The translations under genes were made by a program, and so were the position numbers. Source: a virus (lineage: Duplodnaviria > Caudoviricetes). From it: 43,564 bases of DNA. The notes under the pieces were generated by a model that did not search any database, had not been told where the DNA came from, and saw only the letters and a list, made by a program, of their open reading frames with translations. The stretch is from positions 1 through 43,564 of the IMG/VR virus record IMGVR_UViG_3300043574_000003. The stretch is one strand, 5' to 3'. Below are positions 806-42,641 of this stretch, in pieces (the first letter of the stretch is position 1; each line of letters begins with the position of its first letter).

Positions 806-2176
806 TCAGTCGTCGAAGCCACGCCGAGTCATAGGTTTGGATTGCGGTGGCGCCGGATGCCAGCCGCGCGCCACATCCTCGAAGCGCGTGTATTGCCCGA
901 CATAGACCAGATTGACCTTGCTACCCGCGCCCTGGCGATTGAGGGCGATATTCAGCTCGGCGATCCCTTTGTCTGAGCTGTGCTCGTTGTAGACCTCGTC
1001 CCGGTACAAAAACATCGCAATATCGCAATCCTGTTCGATCGATCCGGAGTCGCGGAGATCAGATGGCAAGGGGCGCTTGTTAGGGCGTTCCTCAAGCTTG
1101 CGATTCAACTGAGACAGAAGCAGCACCACGCAGTTGAGTTCCTTGGCTAGCGCTTTCAGCCCGCGCGTGATGGCTTCGATTTGCGCGTTTCGGTTGTCGC
1201 CGGGACCGCTCATCAATTGCAGGTAGTCGATCACCAGCAGATCTAGGGCGCCGGCCTTGCGCTTGATGGCCATGGCCTTGCCGCGAACCTGCATCAGCGA
1301 CAAGCCGCCTTGGTCGTCTAGGTACAGCTGCATGTCGGTGAGCTTGATCGTGGTGCGGGTCAGAGCCTGCCAATCCTCGGTGGTGAATTTCTTCGGATCA
1401 TTCAGGTGGTTCAGGTCGATCCGGCCGATGCTGGCCAGATTCCGGTTATGTAGCTCGGCTTTGCCCATCTCCATCGACAGGACGGCCGCCACGCCGTCGA
1501 CCGCGACGTGATTGGCGATGTTTAGCGCCAGCGCCGTCTTGCCCATCTTCGGACGCGCGGCCAGTACCACCAGGTTCCCCCGGCGCGGGCCGCCGTTCAA
1601 CGCCGCATCCAAATCGGTGATGCCGGTGCCCACGGCCGGCGAACTGTTGCCGTGGTATTCGGCGTCGATGCGCTCAATGTGCTGCGTCAAGCTCTCGATG
1701 GCGCGCTCTGGCTCGCCGGTGGCGCTGACGCGGCCCAGGGCCTCCAGCTTCGCCGCCGCCGCATCGACCAGTACCGCGCCCTCTTCGGCAGACTGGTGCG
1801 CATCCTCGATCAATTCGTGGGCGATGGCCACCAGCCCACGTTTCAGCGCGCGGTCGCGCACCGTGCGGCAGTACTGCGCTATGTTCGCTGCGCTAGGCAT
1901 GCTCTGGTGCAGCGTGTTGAGGTAGCCGATATCGACCTGTTTCCCTTCGGATTGCAACAGCCCGAAAACGGTGATGACGTCGGCCGGCCGGTTCATGCCC
2001 ACCAGCTTCAGGATTGCGCGGAAGATCATGCGGTGCTGCGCGTCGAAGAAGTGCGCCTCGCCCAGGTCGCCGATCTGGTCGACGGCGCGGTTCAGCCGCA
2101 GTAGGGCGCCCAGCACGGACTGCTCATGCTCGATGGCCACCATGCGATCGGTGTAGCGGTCGTCAGTGGGCATCAT
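806..2176 (-). CDS. dnaB: replicative DNA helicase, DnaB family
   Basis: AARPKMGKT Walker A, LSMEM, VIDYLQLM, LSQLNR, SDLRDSGSIEQD motifs. Confidence 0.96.
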   Translation of the reverse strand: MMPTDDRYTDRMVAIEHEQSVLGALLRLNRAVDQIGDLGEAHFFDAQHRMIFRAILKLVGMNRPADVITVFGLLQSEGKQVDIGYLNTLHQSMPSAANIAQYCRTVRDRALKRGLVAIAHELIEDAHQSAEEGAVLVDAAAAKLEALGRVSATGEPERAIESLTQHIERIDAEYHGNSSPAVGTGITDLDAALNGGPRRGNLVVLAARPKMGKTALALNIANHVAVDGVAAVLSMEMGKAELHNRNLASIGRIDLNHLNDPKKFTTEDWQALTRTTIKLTDMQLYLDDQGGLSLMQVRGKAMAIKRKAGALDLLVIDYLQLMSGPGDNRNAQIEAITRGLKALAKELNCVVLLLSQLNRKLEERPNKRPLPSDLRDSGSIEQDCDIAMFLYRDEVYNEHSSDKGIAELNIALNRQGAGSKVNLVYVGQYTRFEDVARGWHPAPPQSKPMTRRGFDD

Positions 2177-2997
2177 GCTGCTTTCCTTTTGGCGGCTTCA
2201 GCCGTGTTCTTGGCCTGCACGCCGGCCGATGTCAGCGCGCAATTGCCGTTATTGTCGAAGTACCACAGCTTGAACCAGTTCCCGCGCACCGACTTGCCGA
2301 ACACGATGCGCCAAGCCTTGTACTTTTTCGCCCCCTCGACGGTGTAACGCGCCCGAAACTCGGACCACTGCAGCGCCAGCACGTCATGACTGATGCCAGC
2401 CTCGGCGGCATAATCAAAAACACAATCGTCTTCAGGAACGGGCTTGACGCCTTCAGCCTTGCATTCAGCCAAGAATGTTTTCAGCGAGATAGCGGCACGA
2501 ACTTTTTTGACTGGCACGATTGCCCCCGAAGGGGGTATGGGGGTATTTGCTTTTACTTCTTCTCTTCTCTTCTCTTCTCTAGGTAACGCACTGGTAACGG
2601 TCACTGCGTTAGCGATTTCGTGAAGTTGCGTTACCGACTGCGTTACCACAGCGTTAGTTTTGTGATTTGCTACACGTTTTGCGGTCTGAGCACGGCTTTT
2701 TGCCGATGCGCCGTTGTGTTCTTCGAAACGAGTTAAGGTGATGCCGCCAGGGGTATCGGCGATCCAGTCGATGCTAAGCAGTGCCGCCCCCATACCAGGA
2801 ACGCCGGATTCACGATCGATCGCCTTGAGACTCAGGCCCGGCATGTGCCCATCCTGCGTGTGTTCGTCAGCCGATGACCAGAGCCAGTACAGCGCGCCGA
2901 CGACGGCCGGCTTGCTTGCATCGGTCAAATCGCAAAGCTGGGAAACTCGGGGGTCGGTCCAGAGGTTTGTGCGGACCTTGATCCATTCGCCGGCCAT
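2173..2997 (-). CDS. phage replication initiator protein
   Basis: MAGEWIKVR N-terminus, Lys/Glu/Arg-rich linker REEKRREE with internal iteron-like repeats, ATGA overlap with dnaB: lambdoid initiator-helicase arrangement. Confidence 0.75.
   Translation of the reverse strand: MAGEWIKVRTNLWTDPRVSQLCDLTDASKPAVVGALYWLWSSADEHTQDGHMPGLSLKAIDRESGVPGMGAALLSIDWIADTPGGITLTRFEEHNGASAKSRAQTAKRVANHKTNAVVTQSVTQLHEIANAVTVTSALPREEKRREEVKANTPIPPSGAIVPVKKVRAAISLKTFLAECKAEGVKPVPEDDCVFDYAAEAGISHDVLALQWSEFRARYTVEGAKKYKAWRIVFGKSVRGNWFKLWYFDNNGNCALTSAGVQAKNTAEAAKRKAA
2561..2657. repeat. putative replication origin: iteron-like GCGTTAC/GGTAACG repeats plus (TCTCT)n tract inside the initiator gene
   Basis: ggtaacg at 2582 and 2593; gcgtta(c/g) at ~2606, 2628, 2640, 2651; polypyrimidine tract 2561-2580. 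Lambdoid origins lie within the initiator gene. Confidence 0.55.
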
Positions 2998-2998
2998 C

Positions 2999-3121
2999 TC
3001 AAACCCCGCAGTGTGCGGCGATGCGCTTGATGGCAGCTTCGTATTCGGCCGGGGTGGCGTCGGGATGGGCGCTTACCAACGCTGCCTTAAGAATTTCGTA
3101 GTGCTGGTAATTCGCTTGCAT
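2999..3121 (-). CDS. 40-aa small protein / leader peptide upstream of the initiator
   Basis: MQANYQHYEILKAALVSAHPDATPAEYEAAIKRIAAHCGV; AAAGGA RBS; stop lies 1 nt before the initiator ATG. Confidence 0.65.
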   Translation of the reverse strand: MQANYQHYEILKAALVSAHPDATPAEYEAAIKRIAAHCGV

Positions 3122-3262
3122 GGCTAATCCTTTAGGCTGCACGTTGAACCGGGTCGCATTCCCTTTACACGATGGCGAGCGCCGTCGATGGGTCCGGTAA
3201 AACGTGCAGTCTGAAAGATTCATTTGAGAATTTCGTGTAAATATAGGCCGCGACAGCCTGAG
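3122..3262 (-). ncRNA. structured 5' leader RNA (long RBS-sequestering stem with alternative pairings)
   Basis: Stem 3126-3152 with 3194-3220; 9-bp complement 3164-3172/3233-3241; loop of small hairpin 3245-3259 complementary to 3153-3158. Confidence 0.6.
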
Positions 3263-3267
3263 CAGTA

Positions 3268-3297
3268 ATCGTATGCGAGTTTCCCCGCATGCGTCAA
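3268..3297 (-). promoter_or_regulatory. sigma70-like promoter TTGACG-N18-TACGAT
   Basis: -35 at 3292-3297, -10 at 3268-3273; predicted start just before the leader hairpin. Confidence 0.6.
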
Positions 3298-3315
3298 GGA
3301 AATTATTGCGAGTCG

Positions 3316-3447
3316 TCAAATCGCCTTTCCGTAAATCCGCGCGCAGTACCACAGCACGAACGCCTCGCGCGCGGTCGGGCCGACGAATACGCCGTCGTCG
3401 GCGATGCACAGCCAGGCGCCAGAGTGGGGCTTGAGGTGTGGCTTCAT
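3316..3447 (-). CDS. 43-aa hypothetical protein
   Basis: Hand-translated MKPHLKPHSGAWLCIADDGVFVGPTAREAFVLWYCARIYGKAI; ATGA overlap with the methyltransferase stop. Confidence 0.55.
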   Translation of the reverse strand: MKPHLKPHSGAWLCIADDGVFVGPTAREAFVLWYCARIYGKAI

Positions 3448-3920
3448 GCTGCCACCACACGACCAAGCCCACTGCGTTCCAGCGCCAGCACGTTCAACGC
3501 CCCGTAGGCAATCAAGCAGATAGGTGCGCCGCTGTTGAACGGCGCCCGCTTGCCGTCGACGGTATGGAAGTGCGGCCGGCCCTTGATGAACAGCACGGCG
3601 TCAGCAACCTGCCACACCGTCTCGTAAAACATCGCGGTCTCGGTGCGCGCCGGGATCAGTGCCACGCCGTTGCCGTGCGCGGCCATCTTGCGCATCCAGT
3701 GAATCGCCTCGCGGCCAAACGGCGGATTGCACCAGACGCGTCCCGCCCAAGGCTGCAACAGGCCGCTATCCTCTACGGTGAAGTGGCGCGCGGCGGTGTC
3801 CCATGGTCGGGCAACAGGAGCGCACGGATCCAAGTCGAACGTGCCGAGAGGAGCCAAGATGCTCGGCGGTGTCAGCCATTCGTCATGACCTCCATTTTTT
3901 TGATGCGACGACATGCTCAC
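3444..3920 (-). CDS. phage DNA N6-adenine methyltransferase
   Basis: DEWLTP, FDLDPCA (SAM binding), WCNPPF (catalytic) and LIPARTET motifs. Confidence 0.88.
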   Translation of the reverse strand: MSMSSHQKNGGHDEWLTPPSILAPLGTFDLDPCAPVARPWDTAARHFTVEDSGLLQPWAGRVWCNPPFGREAIHWMRKMAAHGNGVALIPARTETAMFYETVWQVADAVLFIKGRPHFHTVDGKRAPFNSGAPICLIAYGALNVLALERSGLGRVVAA

Positions 3921-7110: not shown

Positions 7111-7725
7111 ATGCAAACTACCCTGAACCAAATCCGCGAACACTCACCATGCCAAGAAGGCTGGACGAAGTTACTGCGCGCCCTGAACAAAACTAAAGCC
7201 GACGACGATCCAGTAAGCATCGTGCAAGTCCTCGACAGCAACGGCCTGGATGATGCGCTGTGGTGCCTGCGTGCCGTCAAAGGCTGCGACAAAGAAATCC
7301 GCCTGTACGCGGTCTGGTGCGCCCGTCAAGTCGAACATCTGATGAACGCTGATCGCAGCAAGCAAGCCCTGGTTGTTGCTGAGCGGTTTGCTAATGGGGA
7401 GGCCACCGAGCAAGAACGGGCTGCTGCGTGGGCTGCTGCGTGGGCTGCTGCGTGGGCTGCTGCGTGGGCTGCTGCGTGGGCTGCTGCGTGGGCTGCTGCG
7501 GGGGCTGCTGCGTGGGATGCTGCGAGGGCTGCTGCGTGGGATGCTGCGAGGGCTGCTGCGGGGGCTGCTGCGTGGGATGCTGCGTGGGCTGCTGCGGGGG
7601 CTGCTGCGTGGGATGCTGCGAGGGCTGCTGCGGGGGCTGCTGCGTGGGATGCTGCGAGGGCTGCGCAAGCCGCTGAACTGCGCCGCGTTTGCGCCAAATG
7701 GGAAGCTAATCAGGTGCCAGCATGA
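7111..7725 (+). CDS. phage protein with Ala/Trp-rich tetrapeptide repeats
   Basis: TTLNQIREHSPC.EGW.KLL, SNGLDDALWCLRA N-domain followed by AAAW/DAAR/AAAG repeats; GAGGA RBS. Confidence 0.8.
   Translation: MQTTLNQIREHSPCQEGWTKLLRALNKTKADDDPVSIVQVLDSNGLDDALWCLRAVKGCDKEIRLYAVWCARQVEHLMNADRSKQALVVAERFANGEATEQERAAAWAAAWAAAWAAAWAAAWAAAWAAAGAAAWDAARAAAWDAARAAAGAAAWDAAWAAAGAAAWDAARAAAGAAAWDAARAAQAAELRRVCAKWEANQVPA
7420..7659 (+). repeat. 20 x 12-bp tandem repeat G(C/A)TGCTGCG(T/G/A)GG
   Basis: Directly visible in-frame array; only unit positions 2 and 10 vary. Confidence 0.95.
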
Positions 7726-8502: not shown

Positions 8503-8532
8503 TTGCGAAGGATCAATGTTTTAAGGTATCGT
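8503..8532 (+). promoter_or_regulatory. sigma70-like promoter TTGCGA-N18-TATCGT
   Basis: -35 at 8503-8508, -10 at 8527-8532, just before a structured leader. Confidence 0.55.
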
Positions 8533-8539
8533 GTGCGCA

Positions 8540-8667
8540 ATGGTGTGAGAGCCAAAGTACAGTGCAGAAAACAAGCCGTCAAAAGCTTGGGTTCTGAGAA
8601 CCGCCAGGAGCTGCACGCTTGGCCAAGTTCTCTCTCACCAGAACCCAGACTTTTGACGGTTTTTTTT
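8540..8667 (+). ncRNA. structured leader/attenuator RNA ending in a terminator
   Basis: Long stem 8573-8596/8639-8662 followed by a T-run; gtgagag 8545-8551 complements ctctcac 8632-8638; gtgcag 8562-8567 complements ctgcac 8611-8616. Confidence 0.65.
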
Positions 8668-8961
8668 CGTCTGTAGGTTCCACATCATTCGCACCGGACG
8701 CAGCGATACGAGACAGGCCTGATATCGGCCTACACCGGAAAGTAGACAGGCACCGACAGCCCCGGCCACGCCTAGCAAGCCTTGATGCAGGGACTTGAAA
8801 CAACTGTTATGCGGCAAGTGGTGAGACACCGCTGATAGGATGGAATGCATACCGCTTCGGTGGATTGGGTCTGGATCTTGTATCTGGATTGGATCAAAGG
8901 TGATAGAGACTGCGTAGGAAACTACAGGCTTATCACCCTTGGGGAAACTATGGAGAAACAC

Positions 8962-11293: not shown

Positions 11294-12170
11294 CGATAAA
11301 ACGAACGAAGAATGGGCCGACCTGGTCCGCGCACAGATCGCGCAGATTGATGCGCTGACTCTGGCGCTGTCGGAGGCACGTAACGCCACGAGCGCGCCGG
11401 TTGATCTGTCGGGCCTGAAGAACCCTTACACTGGTCAAAGATGCCTGTCGCTGTATTCGGTCGGCTGGGAGCGCTGCATGTCCGAAGTGCGCGCCCTGCT
11501 GGCTGCTTCGCCAGCACCAACAGCCCCTACCGTTAGGCAACTCGCCGCGCAGTTGGACAGCGACGAGAAGTGGACGATTGCCGAGCAAAAAGCATTCGCA
11601 CCGTTCCTGGCACGCTTCCCCAATGAATGCAGCCAGGGCATTCAGTCGCTCGGCTCGGCGTGGAAACACGGCATCGCCTATGCGAATTCCCTCGCCGCCC
11701 CACAGCAGCATGCGCAAGCGGCGCTGAGCGATGAGCCAGCTTGGATATCTGTCAAAGACGCCCTGCCAAAGATAGAGCAATCGGTCGGAATGCATAGCAC
11801 GCGTGTTCATGTTTTGGCTGTGGCTGATTACGATGGAATAGTTTCGCAAATGTCTTTCATCCCCGAGTCTTCGCCACAGTGGCGTTACTTGGATGGGCGT
11901 CCTCGGCGGTTCGGTCCGACGCATTGGATGCCACTGCCAGTATTCGACACCGCCAGCCATCAGCCAGCCGCAGCACCAGACGTCGCCCAGTGCCAGCTTG
12001 TCTACGCAGAAGCACCACAGCAGGGCGGGGAGTTGCTGCAGGATGAGCGCAAGGCTTTTGAGGCGTGGATGCGAGATGAGTGTGGCGCTGACGACGACAT
12101 GCTGAAGCGTCCGCACGAAGGTCGATATTTCGGCTATCCGGATTACTCGGTGGAAAGGGGTGAGTCATGA
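11286..12170 (+). CDS. mosaic early protein with DUF551-like segment; 3' end replaced by the IS terminus
   Basis: WISVKDALP...PTHWMPLP segment; last 12 residues (GYPDYSVERGES) are encoded by the IS end starting at 12132. Confidence 0.7.
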   Translation: MNNDKTNEEWADLVRAQIAQIDALTLALSEARNATSAPVDLSGLKNPYTGQRCLSLYSVGWERCMSEVRALLAASPAPTAPTVRQLAAQLDSDEKWTIAEQKAFAPFLARFPNECSQGIQSLGSAWKHGIAYANSLAAPQQHAQAALSDEPAWISVKDALPKIEQSVGMHSTRVHVLAVADYDGIVSQMSFIPESSPQWRYLDGRPRRFGPTHWMPLPVFDTASHQPAAAPDVAQCQLVYAEAPQQGGELLQDERKAFEAWMRDECGADDDMLKRPHEGRYFGYPDYSVERGES

Positions 12171-13558
12171 ATAAACTCATCTGGGTGGAAACGCCAGTTG
12201 CAGTCTGCGCAAACCATAAGCAGGCTTTCCACTATCTCAGGGGCGGTTGCGCCCCTCGGCCTGACGTGGTCAATATGGTGACCGGCAAGCTCGTCTTCCA
12301 GAAACAAGCCTCCACAGCAAGCGCAGCGGTGCATCGGCTCATCAGCAATCGGCATCTGAGCCTGGGCAGCCCGCTTGGCGCGCAACTGGCGCTTGGACGG
12401 CTCCCGGTTGTTAAACAGCAGCCTGGCCCTGATGACCTCGAACGAGTAGCCGCGCCCCATCCTGTTCATCACCTTGGCAACGCCGTTGACGCCCTCGGTG
12501 TAGGCGTTGGTGATGGGGAAGTCGAAGTAGTTCAGAATCTCCTTCCGCCAGTTCTTCATGGCAGACAGCAGGTCCTTGAAGTCGGCCTTGAGGCTGTCTG
12601 GCACGTCGCCGGCGAAGCTGTCGAAGTCCCTGATGGCGGCGTCCTTTGGCAAGGTGTAGATGTCGAACAGCCGCTCCTTGAGCTTGTAGGCCTCAGCAAC
12701 CTCAGGCTCATTGGCCAGCCACATATCCAGGTTGAATCGCTGCTTGACGCTCAGGTCCTTGTTGCGCAGCCTCAGCAGCGCCTTGCTGCGCATCCAGCCC
12801 TTCCGGACAGCTGCCTTCTGGTCTTTGCCCAGGCGGATGCGGGTGCGCTCGATGCTCTCGTTGGCCTTCTTGACGACGTGGAAGCGGTCGATGACGACGG
12901 GCAGGTCCTTGAACATCAGTCCAGCCACGTCTCGGTACGGCGCCCACATGTCGATGGCCAGGCCCTTTACGTGGCTACGGTCGGGGAACTGGCTGAACCA
13001 GCGGATGAGCTGCGGCTTGTCACGGCCTGGCAGCAGGTCTATGGGGCGGCCGTTGCCAATGTCGGTGATGATGCCCCGGAAAATCTTGTTCAGGTGCGTC
13101 TCGTCCAGTCCAATCCACTCGGGCAGGTAGGGCTTGTACTCGACACTCATGGCCTCGATGAGGTCGCCGGCTACGTTCCTGACGGTCTTCTCGTCGCAGC
13201 CAAGGTGCTCGGAGACGCGCTGGAAGGTGTCACGCAGGCACTGCTGCTCGATGTAGGCCAGGCAGCGCTCCGTCATCCTGCGTTCAGCGTCAATGCCCTC
13301 CAAGGGCTGCAAGAACGTGCCGCTGCAGTCTCGGCACTTGTAGCGCTGGACCTTGGCCTCGATGCAGGATGGTCGACCGCGGACCGGGCTATCCAGGATG
13401 GTGAGCGACCTGGGGCCGTGACGGTAGAGCGCGCCCACCAGCCCGCACAGAGGGCAGGAGTCGGGTTGCTTGGCGTACTGGGCGGCTATGACGAGACGCT
13501 TGCCATCGTCAGTGGTGCTGGAAACCGTCCAGCCGGGCAATTGAAGGATGTCGGTCAT
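12143..13558 (-). CDS. ISL3-family transposase with C-terminal HNH-like extension
   Basis: N-terminal CPLCG...CRDC zinc finger; IGLDET, AIDMW..Y, IDRFHV, TNAYTEGVN DDE motifs; tail CACC...HHIDHVRP...CADCNWRFH. Confidence 0.92.
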   Translation of the reverse strand: MTDILQLPGWTVSSTTDDGKRLVIAAQYAKQPDSCPLCGLVGALYRHGPRSLTILDSPVRGRPSCIEAKVQRYKCRDCSGTFLQPLEGIDAERRMTERCLAYIEQQCLRDTFQRVSEHLGCDEKTVRNVAGDLIEAMSVEYKPYLPEWIGLDETHLNKIFRGIITDIGNGRPIDLLPGRDKPQLIRWFSQFPDRSHVKGLAIDMWAPYRDVAGLMFKDLPVVIDRFHVVKKANESIERTRIRLGKDQKAAVRKGWMRSKALLRLRNKDLSVKQRFNLDMWLANEPEVAEAYKLKERLFDIYTLPKDAAIRDFDSFAGDVPDSLKADFKDLLSAMKNWRKEILNYFDFPITNAYTEGVNGVAKVMNRMGRGYSFEVIRARLLFNNREPSKRQLRAKRAAQAQMPIADEPMHRCACCGGLFLEDELAGHHIDHVRPRGATAPEIVESLLMVCADCNWRFHPDEFIHDSPLSTE

Positions 13559-18963: not shown

Positions 18964-21900
18964 TTACTTCTTCTCTTGGTACCCCAGCGCCAGCGCCGCC
19001 GGGTTGTCCGTCTTGCCATTGGCCAGCGCCTCGGCGCCGGTGATGGTGCGGTTGATCTGCGCGCCAGGAAGTCCGGTCAGGTCGCCGACGATGTTGACGG
19101 TGGCCTTGCGGAAGCCCTCGTCCAGCTCGCCCTGGCCCGCCTCCTTAGCGAACTTGGCAGCGTCGCCGACTATGCGCACGCCTGCCGGCCCCTGGTATCC
19201 GAAGGTCTGTTGCCCGGCCATGATCTTGCCGACCTCGGCAAACTCGCGCGTGATGACCATGAGGCTCATCAGATACGTCAGTTGTTCGGCAGCCAGGCGC
19301 CGCGCCAGTTTGTCCATATCGTCATCGTCGCCCGAGTCGCCCGGCGTGATGGCCTGCTTGAGCGCATACCCCAGCACCGCCGGCACGGTGTACAGCAGCA
19401 GGTAGTCGCTGGCCAGCTTGGCCTTGCTCTTGGCCGTCATGGTCTGGCCGACGCCCAGGTTGAACGCGGTGTTCATGAACGAGTAGAACACGGTGAACAG
19501 CTTGAGCGCCTGGCCGCCGCGCTCGATCGCCGCCACGTCCTTGACCTGGCCGCCGCCCTGGGCATCGATGACGGCCTGGTCGGCCATCGCCACGCTGCGC
19601 GCCTCGTCGTTACCGCCGGCAACCGCTTTGTCATAGGCGCCCGTCCAGGTCGGCACGTCGACCATCTGCTGGGCGCGCATCATCAGCACATAGGCGTGCT
19701 GCTTGATGGCATCGTCCACCGACACCTGGCCCTGCACCTTGTTGCGCAGCTCGTTCAGCTCGCGGTAGCGCGTGCGTTGGCGGTTGCGCATGAACTCCGA
19801 TTTGAAGTTGGCGTTGCGCGTGCTCTGGATTGGCGATGCGATGTACTGCATGATCCCCTTGCCGATCCAGCCCGGCCCGACGCGCACGATGGACTGAGTG
19901 ATGCCCAGCCCCTGCATTGCGGCCGACATGACGTTGTAGCCGAGACCGGCGACGCTGACGTTCTGCCGCAGCTTGCCCAGCGCGATCTCGCCGGCGTTGG
20001 CCGCGCCCTTCTCCCCCTCGGCAATGTCGTTCACCCAGGATTTGAATTGCGCCTTGACCTCTGGCCCATAGTGCTCGCGGATGGCGCGGTCGATGCTTTG
20101 CGAGCGCAGCAGGCGGTTGGTGTCGATCAGCCATTCGTGCCAGCTCAAATCGTGGATCACGTCGTTGACGCCGGAATACAGGCCGGCCAGCGAGTACAGC
20201 AGCGGCCGGCCGACGACGGCCTCGGCGCGGGTCTTGGTGAAGCTGCGGCGCGTAGTGGCGCTGGTATATGCCCCTTGAAGCTGGCGCTGGGCGCCCTCGG
20301 CGTCCAGGTGCTCCTCGGCGCGGATGCTTGCGGCCGGATCGTACTTGACTGGGTAGTAGCCGCCTTTGTACTCGCCGTGCGTGGTCTGCACCGGCGCCGG
20401 CTCCAGCCATTGCGGCGCGCGGCCGTAGACCCGCTTCTCTTTGGCCTCGATCATCGGCCGGTAGCTTTCGAAGTGGTCCCAAACAGCTTGCACGGCGTCC
20501 CATTCCTGCTTGGTCAGGCTGTCCAGGATCGGCTTGACCTGCTCCCGCGTCCACCCCTCGCCGCCCAGCAGGCGCTGGATGTTCGACTCGTTGCCGAAGT
20601 TTAGGGCGATGGCGATGCGCGATTCCCGGTTGAAGCTGCGGCCGACGCTGGGGAAGAACTGACCCTTGCCGCCCATCTTGCCCAGCTTGAACACCGGCGC
20701 CATGATGTCGGAAAGCGCCTGCGTCGCGGCGGCGCGCATCGTTACTTCGTGGTCGCCGGCCTCGTTCGCGTTGCGCACGAAGTGCTCCCACATCAGGCCG
20801 CCGTCCTTGCCGCCGTCGAGTACGCGCGCCAGAGTGGCGATTTTGAGGTGCGCAGCCCAAAACCGTTTGAGGCCAGCCACGGCGCGGCCAACGTTCGTTG
20901 TCGGCGTGCGCGTGACGGCCTGTCGGTCGCCGGCGTTCTCGTCGATCGACTTGACGAGGTCGTCCCGCACGGCTTCATACTGGCGCTGGTCCTTGGCGGT
21001 GAGCAGCCGGTTCTTCAGGCGGCCCAGGTGGTCGATCTGCTTGATGGTGTCATAGAGGCCGCGCAGCTCTTCCATCGTCATGTCTTTGTACGATTTGCGC
21101 TGCGCCTCATCCAGCAGCTCGGCCGGGATCTCCGGCTCGAAACCCTGTTCGCGCTGCGACTCGGCCCAGGCCAGCAACGACTTGCGGCGGTCGATGTTTC
21201 GCAGCGACTGGCCGGTCCGCAGGTCGAAGCGCTCTAGCAGCGCGTCGATCTGGTCGAGGTAGTCGGTAGCCAGCGCCTTGCGTGCGCCGTCGCCGCCGAA
21301 TTTCTTGAAGTAGGCGACGGCCTTGTCCACCTCGGTCAGCGCGTCGGCGGCGGCGCGCGCGGCGTAGGTCTGAATCAACTGGTTGCGCTTCTCGACGGCG
21401 GCCTGCTCGATTTCGCCTTTCTTGAAAGCGGCGTCGGCGGCCTTGGCGGCGCGCGCGGCGGCTCTGGTGTACTGCGCTGGCTTGATGTCGCGCACGCGCA
21501 GGCGGGCGATTGTGGCCTCCGCAAACGCCTTGGCGGCGCGCGGCAGTGTGGCGACGGTGAGGCGGCGCCCCTGCGCGGTGGTACGACCGCTTTCCTCCCT
21601 GGCCTTGTTGGCGCGCTCAAGTGCGGACAGCTCGGCGGCCAAGAAGCGTGTACGCGCCGCGTCGGCAAGCGCGGCCTCGGTGGCGCGGGCCAGCCGCTCG
21701 GGGTTGGTCAGGTCGCCGTAGCGTTCGAGCATAAGCTTGTCGGTGCGCTCGCGGATGGCCTCTGATGCCGTCGGCGCTGTCAGCAGCTCGCGCACCAACT
21801 GGTCGCCAGACGTGTAGCCGAACATCTCGGCCGCCATGTCGGGACTGATGCCATCGCGGCCCACCATGCGTTCGATCGGCTTCCAGTCGAGCAGCGCGTA

Positions 21901-42544: not shown

Positions 42545-42641
42545 TGGCGCGTGCCACCGGTCTCGAACCAGCAACCTTCCACTGCACTGCGTTATAACGC
42601 ACCATGCGCAGAGGCTGCTCTACCCATTGAGCTATGCACGC
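42545..42641 (-). ncRNA. 97-nt tRNA-like RNA with an extended anticodon arm
   Basis: GCGTGCA/GGCACGC acceptor stem, U8A9, GCTC-AATGGGTA-GAGC D arm, GCTGG-TTCGAGA-CCGGT T arm, encoded CCA; 28 nt in place of the 7-nt anticodon loop. Confidence 0.8.

Follow-up and report, generated by a model that had tools for sequence, protein, structure and literature searches.

A likely two-site leader RNA ahead of phage replication genes and its comparison with the C4 and CI RNAs

To our knowledge, very few phages, namely P4 and P1, have given a detailed picture of replication genes controlled by RNA alone. In plasmids of the IncI/IncB type, the ribosome-binding site (RBS) of the replication initiator is hidden in structure and is opened by translation of a leader peptide. 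The IncI gene repZ needs a pseudoknot, and the Inc RNA blocks this pseudoknot (PMC8383071, in part). The C4 RNA folds into three stem-loops and is cut by RNase P; its a' and b' loops bind the targets, with a' setting the specificity (PMC5320573, in part), and in P1 this RNA represses ant (PMC8198154, in part). In P4, the processed CI RNA pairs in trans with seqA and seqC and stops transcription of the replication genes, while in Gifsy-1 the RNA IsrK is an activator of a small ORF with a coupled anti-repressor (both from parts of PMC4825925). The motifs c4 and c4-a1b1 are listed in the part of PMC2864571 used here, and the motif c4-2 in that of PMC5737381.

The DNA analysed here, called the window throughout, is the whole stretch of 43,564 nucleotides, a 43.6-kb record of an uncultured phage, rated complete. 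Its minus strand carries, in this order, a small HTH gene, NinB, an HNH gene, RusA, a methyltransferase, a 43-aa ORF, the element described below, a 40-aa ORF, a replication initiation protein (2173..2997, phrog_2509, E 1.4e-43), and a DnaB-like replicative helicase (806..2176, phrog_19, E 6e-103). The single-strand-annealing and exonuclease genes are oriented opposite to the replication genes. Tyrosine integrase, resolvase, and S24 repressor domains (PF00589, PF00239, PF00717) were not found in the window record, and PF00589 was absent from five of five complete relatives tested; the phage may still have a non-integrating carrier state. Other features of the window include an ISL3-family transposase that weakly matches HNH at its C-terminus and lies beside a C5 methyltransferase region (12143-13558, minus strand), and a 204-aa protein with tandem AAWAA/AAWDA repeats (7111-7725, plus strand, phrog_18326). 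ARAGORN also calls a long, atypical tRNA-Ala(cgc) of 97 nt (42545-42641, minus strand), downstream of a promoter-like TTGACG...TAGAAT and ahead of the terminase genes.

The region upstream of the replication genes likely encodes a leader RNA of about 140 bases, and this leader is very likely a real RNA element, since the covariation seen in two homologues gives it decisive support. The leader stretch is the same in two contig sets, which are possibly the source of the window's own DNA. Three members are considered here: that of the window, a copy in record G003 (L102/L050), and a further one in record G009 (L602). The labels a1, b1, a', and b' for their pairing sites are borrowed from C4. All parts named below lie on the minus strand, and the promoter, the small hairpin, TTTACACGA, and the interrupted stem reported in a first-pass annotation were found where it had placed them.

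The sigma-70-like promoter TTGACG-N18-TACGAT (3268..3297) consists of TTGACG at 3297-3292, an 18-nt spacer, and TACGAT at 3273-3268, and the predicted transcript start, at about 3260-3259, coincides with the first base of the a1 hairpin. It scores 9/12 and is one of six promoter-like sites in 11 kb, against 3.7 expected; by its consensus alone it is a weak candidate. The G009 member keeps the -10 hexamer (TACAAT, 8 nt before the hairpin) and not the -35, and no promoter consensus was found at the same spacing in the G003 copy. The promoter spacer is covered by an inverted repeat (3270..3294) with a G-T pair and a GAAA loop (-11.8 kcal/mol), and the G009 member has its own 11-bp inverted repeat at the same place, just upstream of 1648 on its minus strand (-16.0 kcal/mol). 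Both repeats contain a G-T pair, differ in their letters, and end at the -10 box; they may represent an operator, an activator site, or a hairpin on read-through RNA.

The transcript would begin with the 5' hairpin AGGC-TGTCGCG-GCCT (3245..3259), which is kept in all three members and whose loop forms site a1, GTCGCG (3254-3249). It is followed by site b1, TTTACACGA (3233..3241), single-stranded in the predicted closed fold. The main stem pairs 3220-3194 with 3152-3126 and is interrupted, with 23 bp in the minimum-energy fold; its 5' arm (3194..3220) includes an anti-RBS segment (3220-3214), and its 3' arm (3126..3152) holds the AAAGGA RBS of the 40-aa ORF (3133-3128) inside the basal helix, as had been proposed. 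Between the arms, an inner arm (3161..3192) is made of a CCC/GGG helix, a GGC/GCC tip hairpin, and site b', TCGTGTAAA (3172-3164), which in the predicted fold lies partly within an internal loop. Site a', TGCGAC (3158-3153), occupies an 8-nt bulge (3153..3160) directly before the 3' arm. Sites TCGTGTAAA, the 9-bp complement of TTTACACGA, and TGCGAC are thus nested as originally described. The match of TGCGAC to GTCGCG also holds, although strictly it comprises five Watson-Crick pairs and one G-U pair. Both sites do lie inside what had been called a large loop; by prediction, however, this loop is structured, with a CCC/GGG helix, a tip hairpin, and a' in a bulge.

The 40-aa ORF (2999..3121, ATG at 3121) belongs to a common family of small phage proteins and gave no match in Pfam or PHROG. 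It abuts the initiator as claimed earlier, its stop ending at 2999, one base ahead of the initiator ATG (2997), and from this arrangement both genes are probably coupled in translation. The reading frame of the 40-aa ORF stays open for 157 codons (2999-3472), across the entire leader, and contains an ATG at about 3223; this extended frame is probably incidental.

The copy in G003 first appeared as a weak nhmmer match (E 0.07-0.13) and was judged a homologue on inspection. It has the same 5' hairpin stem, with GTGACG in the loop pairing with its own a' CGTCAC, a site b made of GGACAAGA/TCTTGTCC, and a near-perfect long stem that covers GAGGGA, after which an HNH-AP2 endonuclease gene follows with no leader ORF. 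A model, R3, built from the window and the G003 copy was run over 199 related virus records and returned two matches: the training copy and, from outside the training set, the new member in G009 at 92.4 bits. In this last member site a is kept, b is replaced by ATGGTGTCGA/TCGATACCGT with G-U pairs, and the stem is kept through compensating changes. It precedes a different ORF, of 78 aa, with its stop touching the ATG that starts a lambda-O-type initiator, itself followed by an ORF resembling by eye the start of a DnaB helicase. The plan of a short ORF before a replication initiator, noticed at first in the window only, is repeated in G009 with a different ORF and initiator. The broader proposal of RNA control of replication stands in part: the element is there, but the G003 member precedes an endonuclease gene, and the element is a proposed switch.

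The covariation that had been asked of homologous leaders was seen in the stem and at both sites across the three members. In a three-row alignment, 95.8% of cells take part in pairs, and both sides have changed in 11 of the 40 pairs, a level reached by none of 500 shuffles, while slid-alignment controls have 31-44% of cells paired. For the main stem, 24 pairs were counted, nine of them altered on both sides, again with 95.8% of cells paired. Site b is out of register in this alignment, and its pairing was counted sequence by sequence, giving matches of 9, 11, and 8 bp made of three different sequences; in the homologues b1 is unrelated to that of the window, and each b1 is complementary to its own b'. 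Site a differs in one of the three members. Cognate duplexes between the 5' module and the inner region reach -22.4 to -26.8 kcal/mol, versus -8.5 to -17.4 for non-cognate combinations. With three members, two of them close, each change represents one or two events. Conservation of the RNA element, with its RBS-hiding stem and two long-range pairings that covary, is thus seen in two homologues, in line with the first suspicion.

Complementarity arising by chance in intergenic DNA was also considered. When the 5' 39 nt were shuffled 20000 times, 43 shuffles gave a 9-bp match and three gave the nested 9+5 match. The 138-nt leader folds with a z of -2.83 (6/500 shuffles equally good) and the 231-nt region with a z of -1.70, while a looser geometry, in which a 5-bp helix lies outside an inverted repeat of 9 bp, is found at about nine places in the window (23 strand-level hits). 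The duplex energy alone, equalled by 165 of 3000 shuffles, is not significant and would agree with chance, but the stem and both sites covary in the homologues, and chance complementarity is largely refuted, retaining hardly any credibility.

The leader is absent from Rfam and from the literature searched, in keeping with the earlier remark that it could not be assigned to a named family. A blastn search against phages and plasmids gave no match, exact-pattern scans of viral contigs returned 15, 64, and, over 19 of 64 parts, at least 120 loci with no homologue among the matches listed, and the scan of a single genome gave one doubtful locus. A descriptor scan of 3.37 Mb gave 12 matches, classified by eye as two of the window-type fold, five of the terminator type described below, one other single-arm leader, and four spurious; it missed the second leader of the window (8505-8668) and most known members. 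Five short motifs were absent from the part of the PMC10690425 supplements that was covered, and the family could be catalogued in the rest of them or in the commentary of PMC2864571.

The order in which the leader is synthesized suggests how such an element could work. Folding of partial transcripts of the window predicts a b duplex from about 93-96 nt, its joining by the a duplex at lengths of 108-117 nt, and the closed stem once 120 nt have been made. Both homologues pass through the same order of states, and in all three members the a/b duplex is the minimum-energy fold of a partial transcript. When a/b is forced, the RBS is predicted to be unpaired with values of 0.68, 0.60, and 0.72 in the three members (window first), against 0.17, 0.20, and 0.00 in the free fold. 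The open state is predicted to be metastable, because it lies above the final fold by 12, 16, and 25 kcal/mol in the same order. At equilibrium the closed stem wins at 120 nt, ahead of the synthesis of the RBS (126-131 nt), so that in the model the open state depends on a kinetic trap.

The preferred reading, for which the balance of confidence is about even, is a self-recognising leader RNA that briefly opens translation of the 40-aa ORF and the initiator and is then shut by its own copies, in the manner of C4 and CI. Sequence and covariation indicate its starting point, in which a1 and b1 at the 5' end match a' and b' inside the 23-bp stem and the base of the stem covers the RBS. Since synthesis reaches b' and a' ahead of the 3' arm, the growing RNA is predicted to zip a1-b1 onto b'-a', which would hold the 5' arm in a closed loop and leave the RBS open. 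The resulting kinetic trap may outlast ribosome loading, since a 3' arm still bound to polymerase could hardly be threaded around a strand that a closed loop constrains. The complete RNA is then predicted to relax to the closed stem, 12 kcal/mol lower in the window, displaying a' and b'. Finally, closed molecules would bind a1-b1 of new transcripts in trans, and these would fold directly into the closed form. The letters of a and b would act as an address, and the brake would affect only phages sharing it; any action in trans would be address-specific because non-cognate duplexes are weaker. The function of the whole mechanism as a switch is inferred.

The same folding predictions would be expected of a leader acting solely in cis, as a timer or rheostat with no trans-acting RNA involved. 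In such a leader the RBS would be opened by a/b pairing, either for a short time or through a pseudoknot whose basal helix is frayed, the latter being close to the idea first proposed. Such a cis-only device, rather unlikely in our judgement, would suit the absence of a target: no nested a+b second target (a2/b2) was found within 400 nt downstream in any of the three members. In the window, moreover, the closed fold (-45.4 kcal/mol) is energetically matched by a state in which the upper stem and the a and b helices coexist with an open RBS (-46.3, before loop penalties). However, this state is 4 kcal/mol worse than the closed fold in the G009 member and 8 kcal/mol worse in the G003 copy, and the wholesale replacement of b among relatives fits recognition between molecules better, even if drift could also yield it. 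A direct repeat, ACGAAATTCT (3236 and 3099), was tried as a seqC-like second target and rejected: about five of its bases pair with b', and the homologues have no second target. Elsewhere in the window, a simple pattern showed no second a1-b1 target with a hairpin.

Adding a 5' module to an already folded copy is predicted to gain about 6-9 kcal/mol with the RBS helix shut, a rough bookkeeping without pseudoknot penalties. This gain would act as a brake if it occurred in trans and as a lock if in cis. In the latter case, a1 and b1 would fold back on the finished stem and keep the downstream gene, the initiator or in G003 the nuclease, low, opening being brought about by read-through transcription or a protein. 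The closed stem with the a/b duplex is indeed the lowest state of all (-53.5 vs -45.4, equally rough and lacking a pseudoknot penalty), and a lock is compatible with the member that precedes an HNH-AP2 endonuclease. Against it stand that the stem by itself already closes the RBS, that the order of synthesis puts the a/b pairing ahead of the stem, and that in terminator-type leaders b1 lies a few bases from the stem base, where on steric grounds a cis lock would be hard to build; a lock is held to be unlikely, though a real rival.

Activation in trans is a further reading: a short a1-b1 fragment would bind b'-a' of full transcripts and open their RBS. The precedent is Gifsy-1, where translation of orf45 and of anrP, which is coupled to it, rises about 140-fold when IsrK is supplied in trans (PMC4825925, in part). 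The layout of leader, small ORF, and coupled gene is shared with that system. Yet no terminator-like site was found after b1, leaving none to release such a fragment, and binding to b'-a' is predicted to keep the RBS helix closed; this possibility is very unlikely.

The IncI/IncB plasmids had been named as the analogue of this locus. Control of their type would involve an activating pseudoknot and, to block it, an antisense RNA transcribed from the opposite strand; here the comparison is not supported. That repZ translation depends on a pseudoknot blocked by Inc RNA is established (PMC8383071, in part), and weak opposite-strand promoter consensus sites exist downstream of the leader in both homologues. 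They lie at non-matching positions, however, and the window has no such site, since a scan limited to consensus matches of at least 8/12 found none over its leader. Moreover, it is the small ORF, and not the initiator, whose RBS is hidden by the stem. The activating pseudoknot is energetically competitive in the window only and is worse in both homologues. A conserved hairpin over the initiator RBS was considered and found no support, a hairpin there being no stronger than in synonymous shuffles: the predicted unpaired value is 0.20, 27% of the shuffles are as good, and significance was not reached at any of six junctions. Control of this type is regarded as highly improbable.

The slot occupied by the element can be filled by an unrelated RNA. 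The closest relative of the initiator (L016, 85%) and that of the 40-aa ORF (L208, 83%) both have at this position a terminator-type leader. Besides a -10 box and b1, this leader has a hairpin whose loop is of the TTGG type, a three-way junction that exposes b' and a', and a U-tract. It shares with the window type the promoter, the 5' a1 hairpin, b1, a long stem with b' and a', the slot, and covarying addresses, and differs in its three-way junction and U-tract and in its sequence, which is unrelated. Neither an HMM of the terminator type nor its covariance model R1 (up to E 10, filters off) matched the window, and Rfam had no match to these leaders either. G003 and G009 each hold both the window-type fold and a terminator-type leader.

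Two pattern scans and nhmmer gave 48 distinct terminator-type sequences, of which six were dropped (three incomplete, one unparsed, and two, the near-identical L422 and L426, lacking a1), leaving 42, among them 39 unique variants. Site a pairs at 7/7 positions in all 39, with seven different address pairs; about four of these seven positions were preset by the parser and by one scan pattern, so that the remaining three carry the evidence. Site b has a mean of 5.2 Watson-Crick pairs in cognate versus 3.2 in non-cognate combinations, which none of 10000 permutations reached when kinship was ignored. Partial-transcript folding predicts a transient a-duplex in 38 of the 39. The absence of a1 from L422 and L426 counts against strict conservation. 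As judged by eye from translated starts, these RNAs precede 40-aa ORFs, initiators, and anti-repressor-like and HNH-like genes. They occur at loci L016, L097, L103, L197-L208, and L394-L513, and in 18 named Ralstonia phage records with no RNA annotation there, among them phage GP4 (NC_054964, about 20140-20222). The terminator-type family is uncatalogued and deserves its own description. Further leader variants, in which the loop of a 5' hairpin matches a segment in a long stem, are seen in L251 (about 1370-1500), L546 (about 1141, minus strand), and L104 (about 1890-1990).

The window itself contains a second two-site leader (8505..8668, plus strand), which ends in a U8 tract before the single-strand-annealing and exonuclease genes. 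Its address is GTGAGAG/CTCTCAC for site a and GTGCAG/CTGCAC for site b, its folding z is -5.84, and its partial transcripts pass through the same sequence of folding states. It is not a sequence homologue of the first leader and is not matched by model R3. A homologue in G004 (L598, 1501-1665, minus strand) has site b changed to ATTACA/TGTAAT with compensation. In a read-through transcript, the segment 8661-8695 folds back to pair with the 5' module; in addition, a' has an 8-nt match at 8819. The b' region of this second leader (8610-8617, plus strand) is also complementary over 8 bp to part of the 3' arm in the first one (3143-3136, minus strand), just above the RBS, which possibly reflects cross-talk between the two operons, or chance.

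What is new at this locus is the two-site logic in a different fold, with no second target set, in a phage with neither integrase nor CI-type repressor. Lacking these two proteins, the phage would use the element, if it is a switch, for timing or exclusion and not for lysogeny. The natural variants (three addresses of the window fold, two of the second leader, and 39 of the terminator type) lend themselves to cis/trans swaps and are possible orthogonal riboregulator parts. A wider and quite tentative proposal is that in non-integrating proteobacterial phages the timing of early operons is left not to a repressor protein but to leader RNAs that are portable, carry an address code, and repress themselves. 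Three or more unrelated folds would share the same two-site logic, swapping in one slot and having a terminator or an RBS as output, and one genome would carry two orthogonal copies, for replication and recombination; accumulated RNA would exclude later phages of the same address.

Among the known systems, the pairing of IncI-alpha/IncB plasmids (ColIb-P9 repZ) resembles the window in that a hairpin loop pairs with a downstream complement before a leader ORF and an initiator, the pairing being predicted to activate. The window type differs in having no conserved counter-transcript promoter, two nested sites instead of one, and the RBS of the small ORF as the hidden one. The likeness to P4 CI and to Gifsy-1 IsrK-orf45-anrP consists of a self-pairing leader, RNA-only control of replication or anti-repressor genes, and a coupled small ORF (PMC4825925, in part). 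In contrast to these, the window has no equivalent of seqC and no terminator after the 5' module, and its predicted output is occlusion of the RBS by the stem.

The closest likeness in layout concerns C4 of P1 and P7 (RF01695; motifs c4-a1b1 and c4-2 of Weinberg et al. 2010 and 2017), where upstream a1/b1 sites are followed by an RNA displaying b' and a', in nested and covarying order. As in C4, a' adjoins the 3' strand of the main stem, the variable letters of a and b would set the specificity, and a small ORF lies beside the regulated gene. RF01695 nevertheless gave no match in the window at the gathering score or at E up to 10, and none in the homologue loci at E up to 1. The window type has one extended arm, with b' in a predicted internal loop in all three members, whereas C4 has three stem-loops, P1-P3; it has no downstream a2/b2, and the RBS lies in the RNA's own stem. 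Its stem starts with AAU and not with the GGW 5' processing motif, and GCCA follows the stem in two of the three members. It also heads replication genes, in a phage with neither integrase nor S24 repressor. By analogy, the element probably works like C4 and CI but stands outside the C4 family on three counts, namely model match, fold, and second target set.
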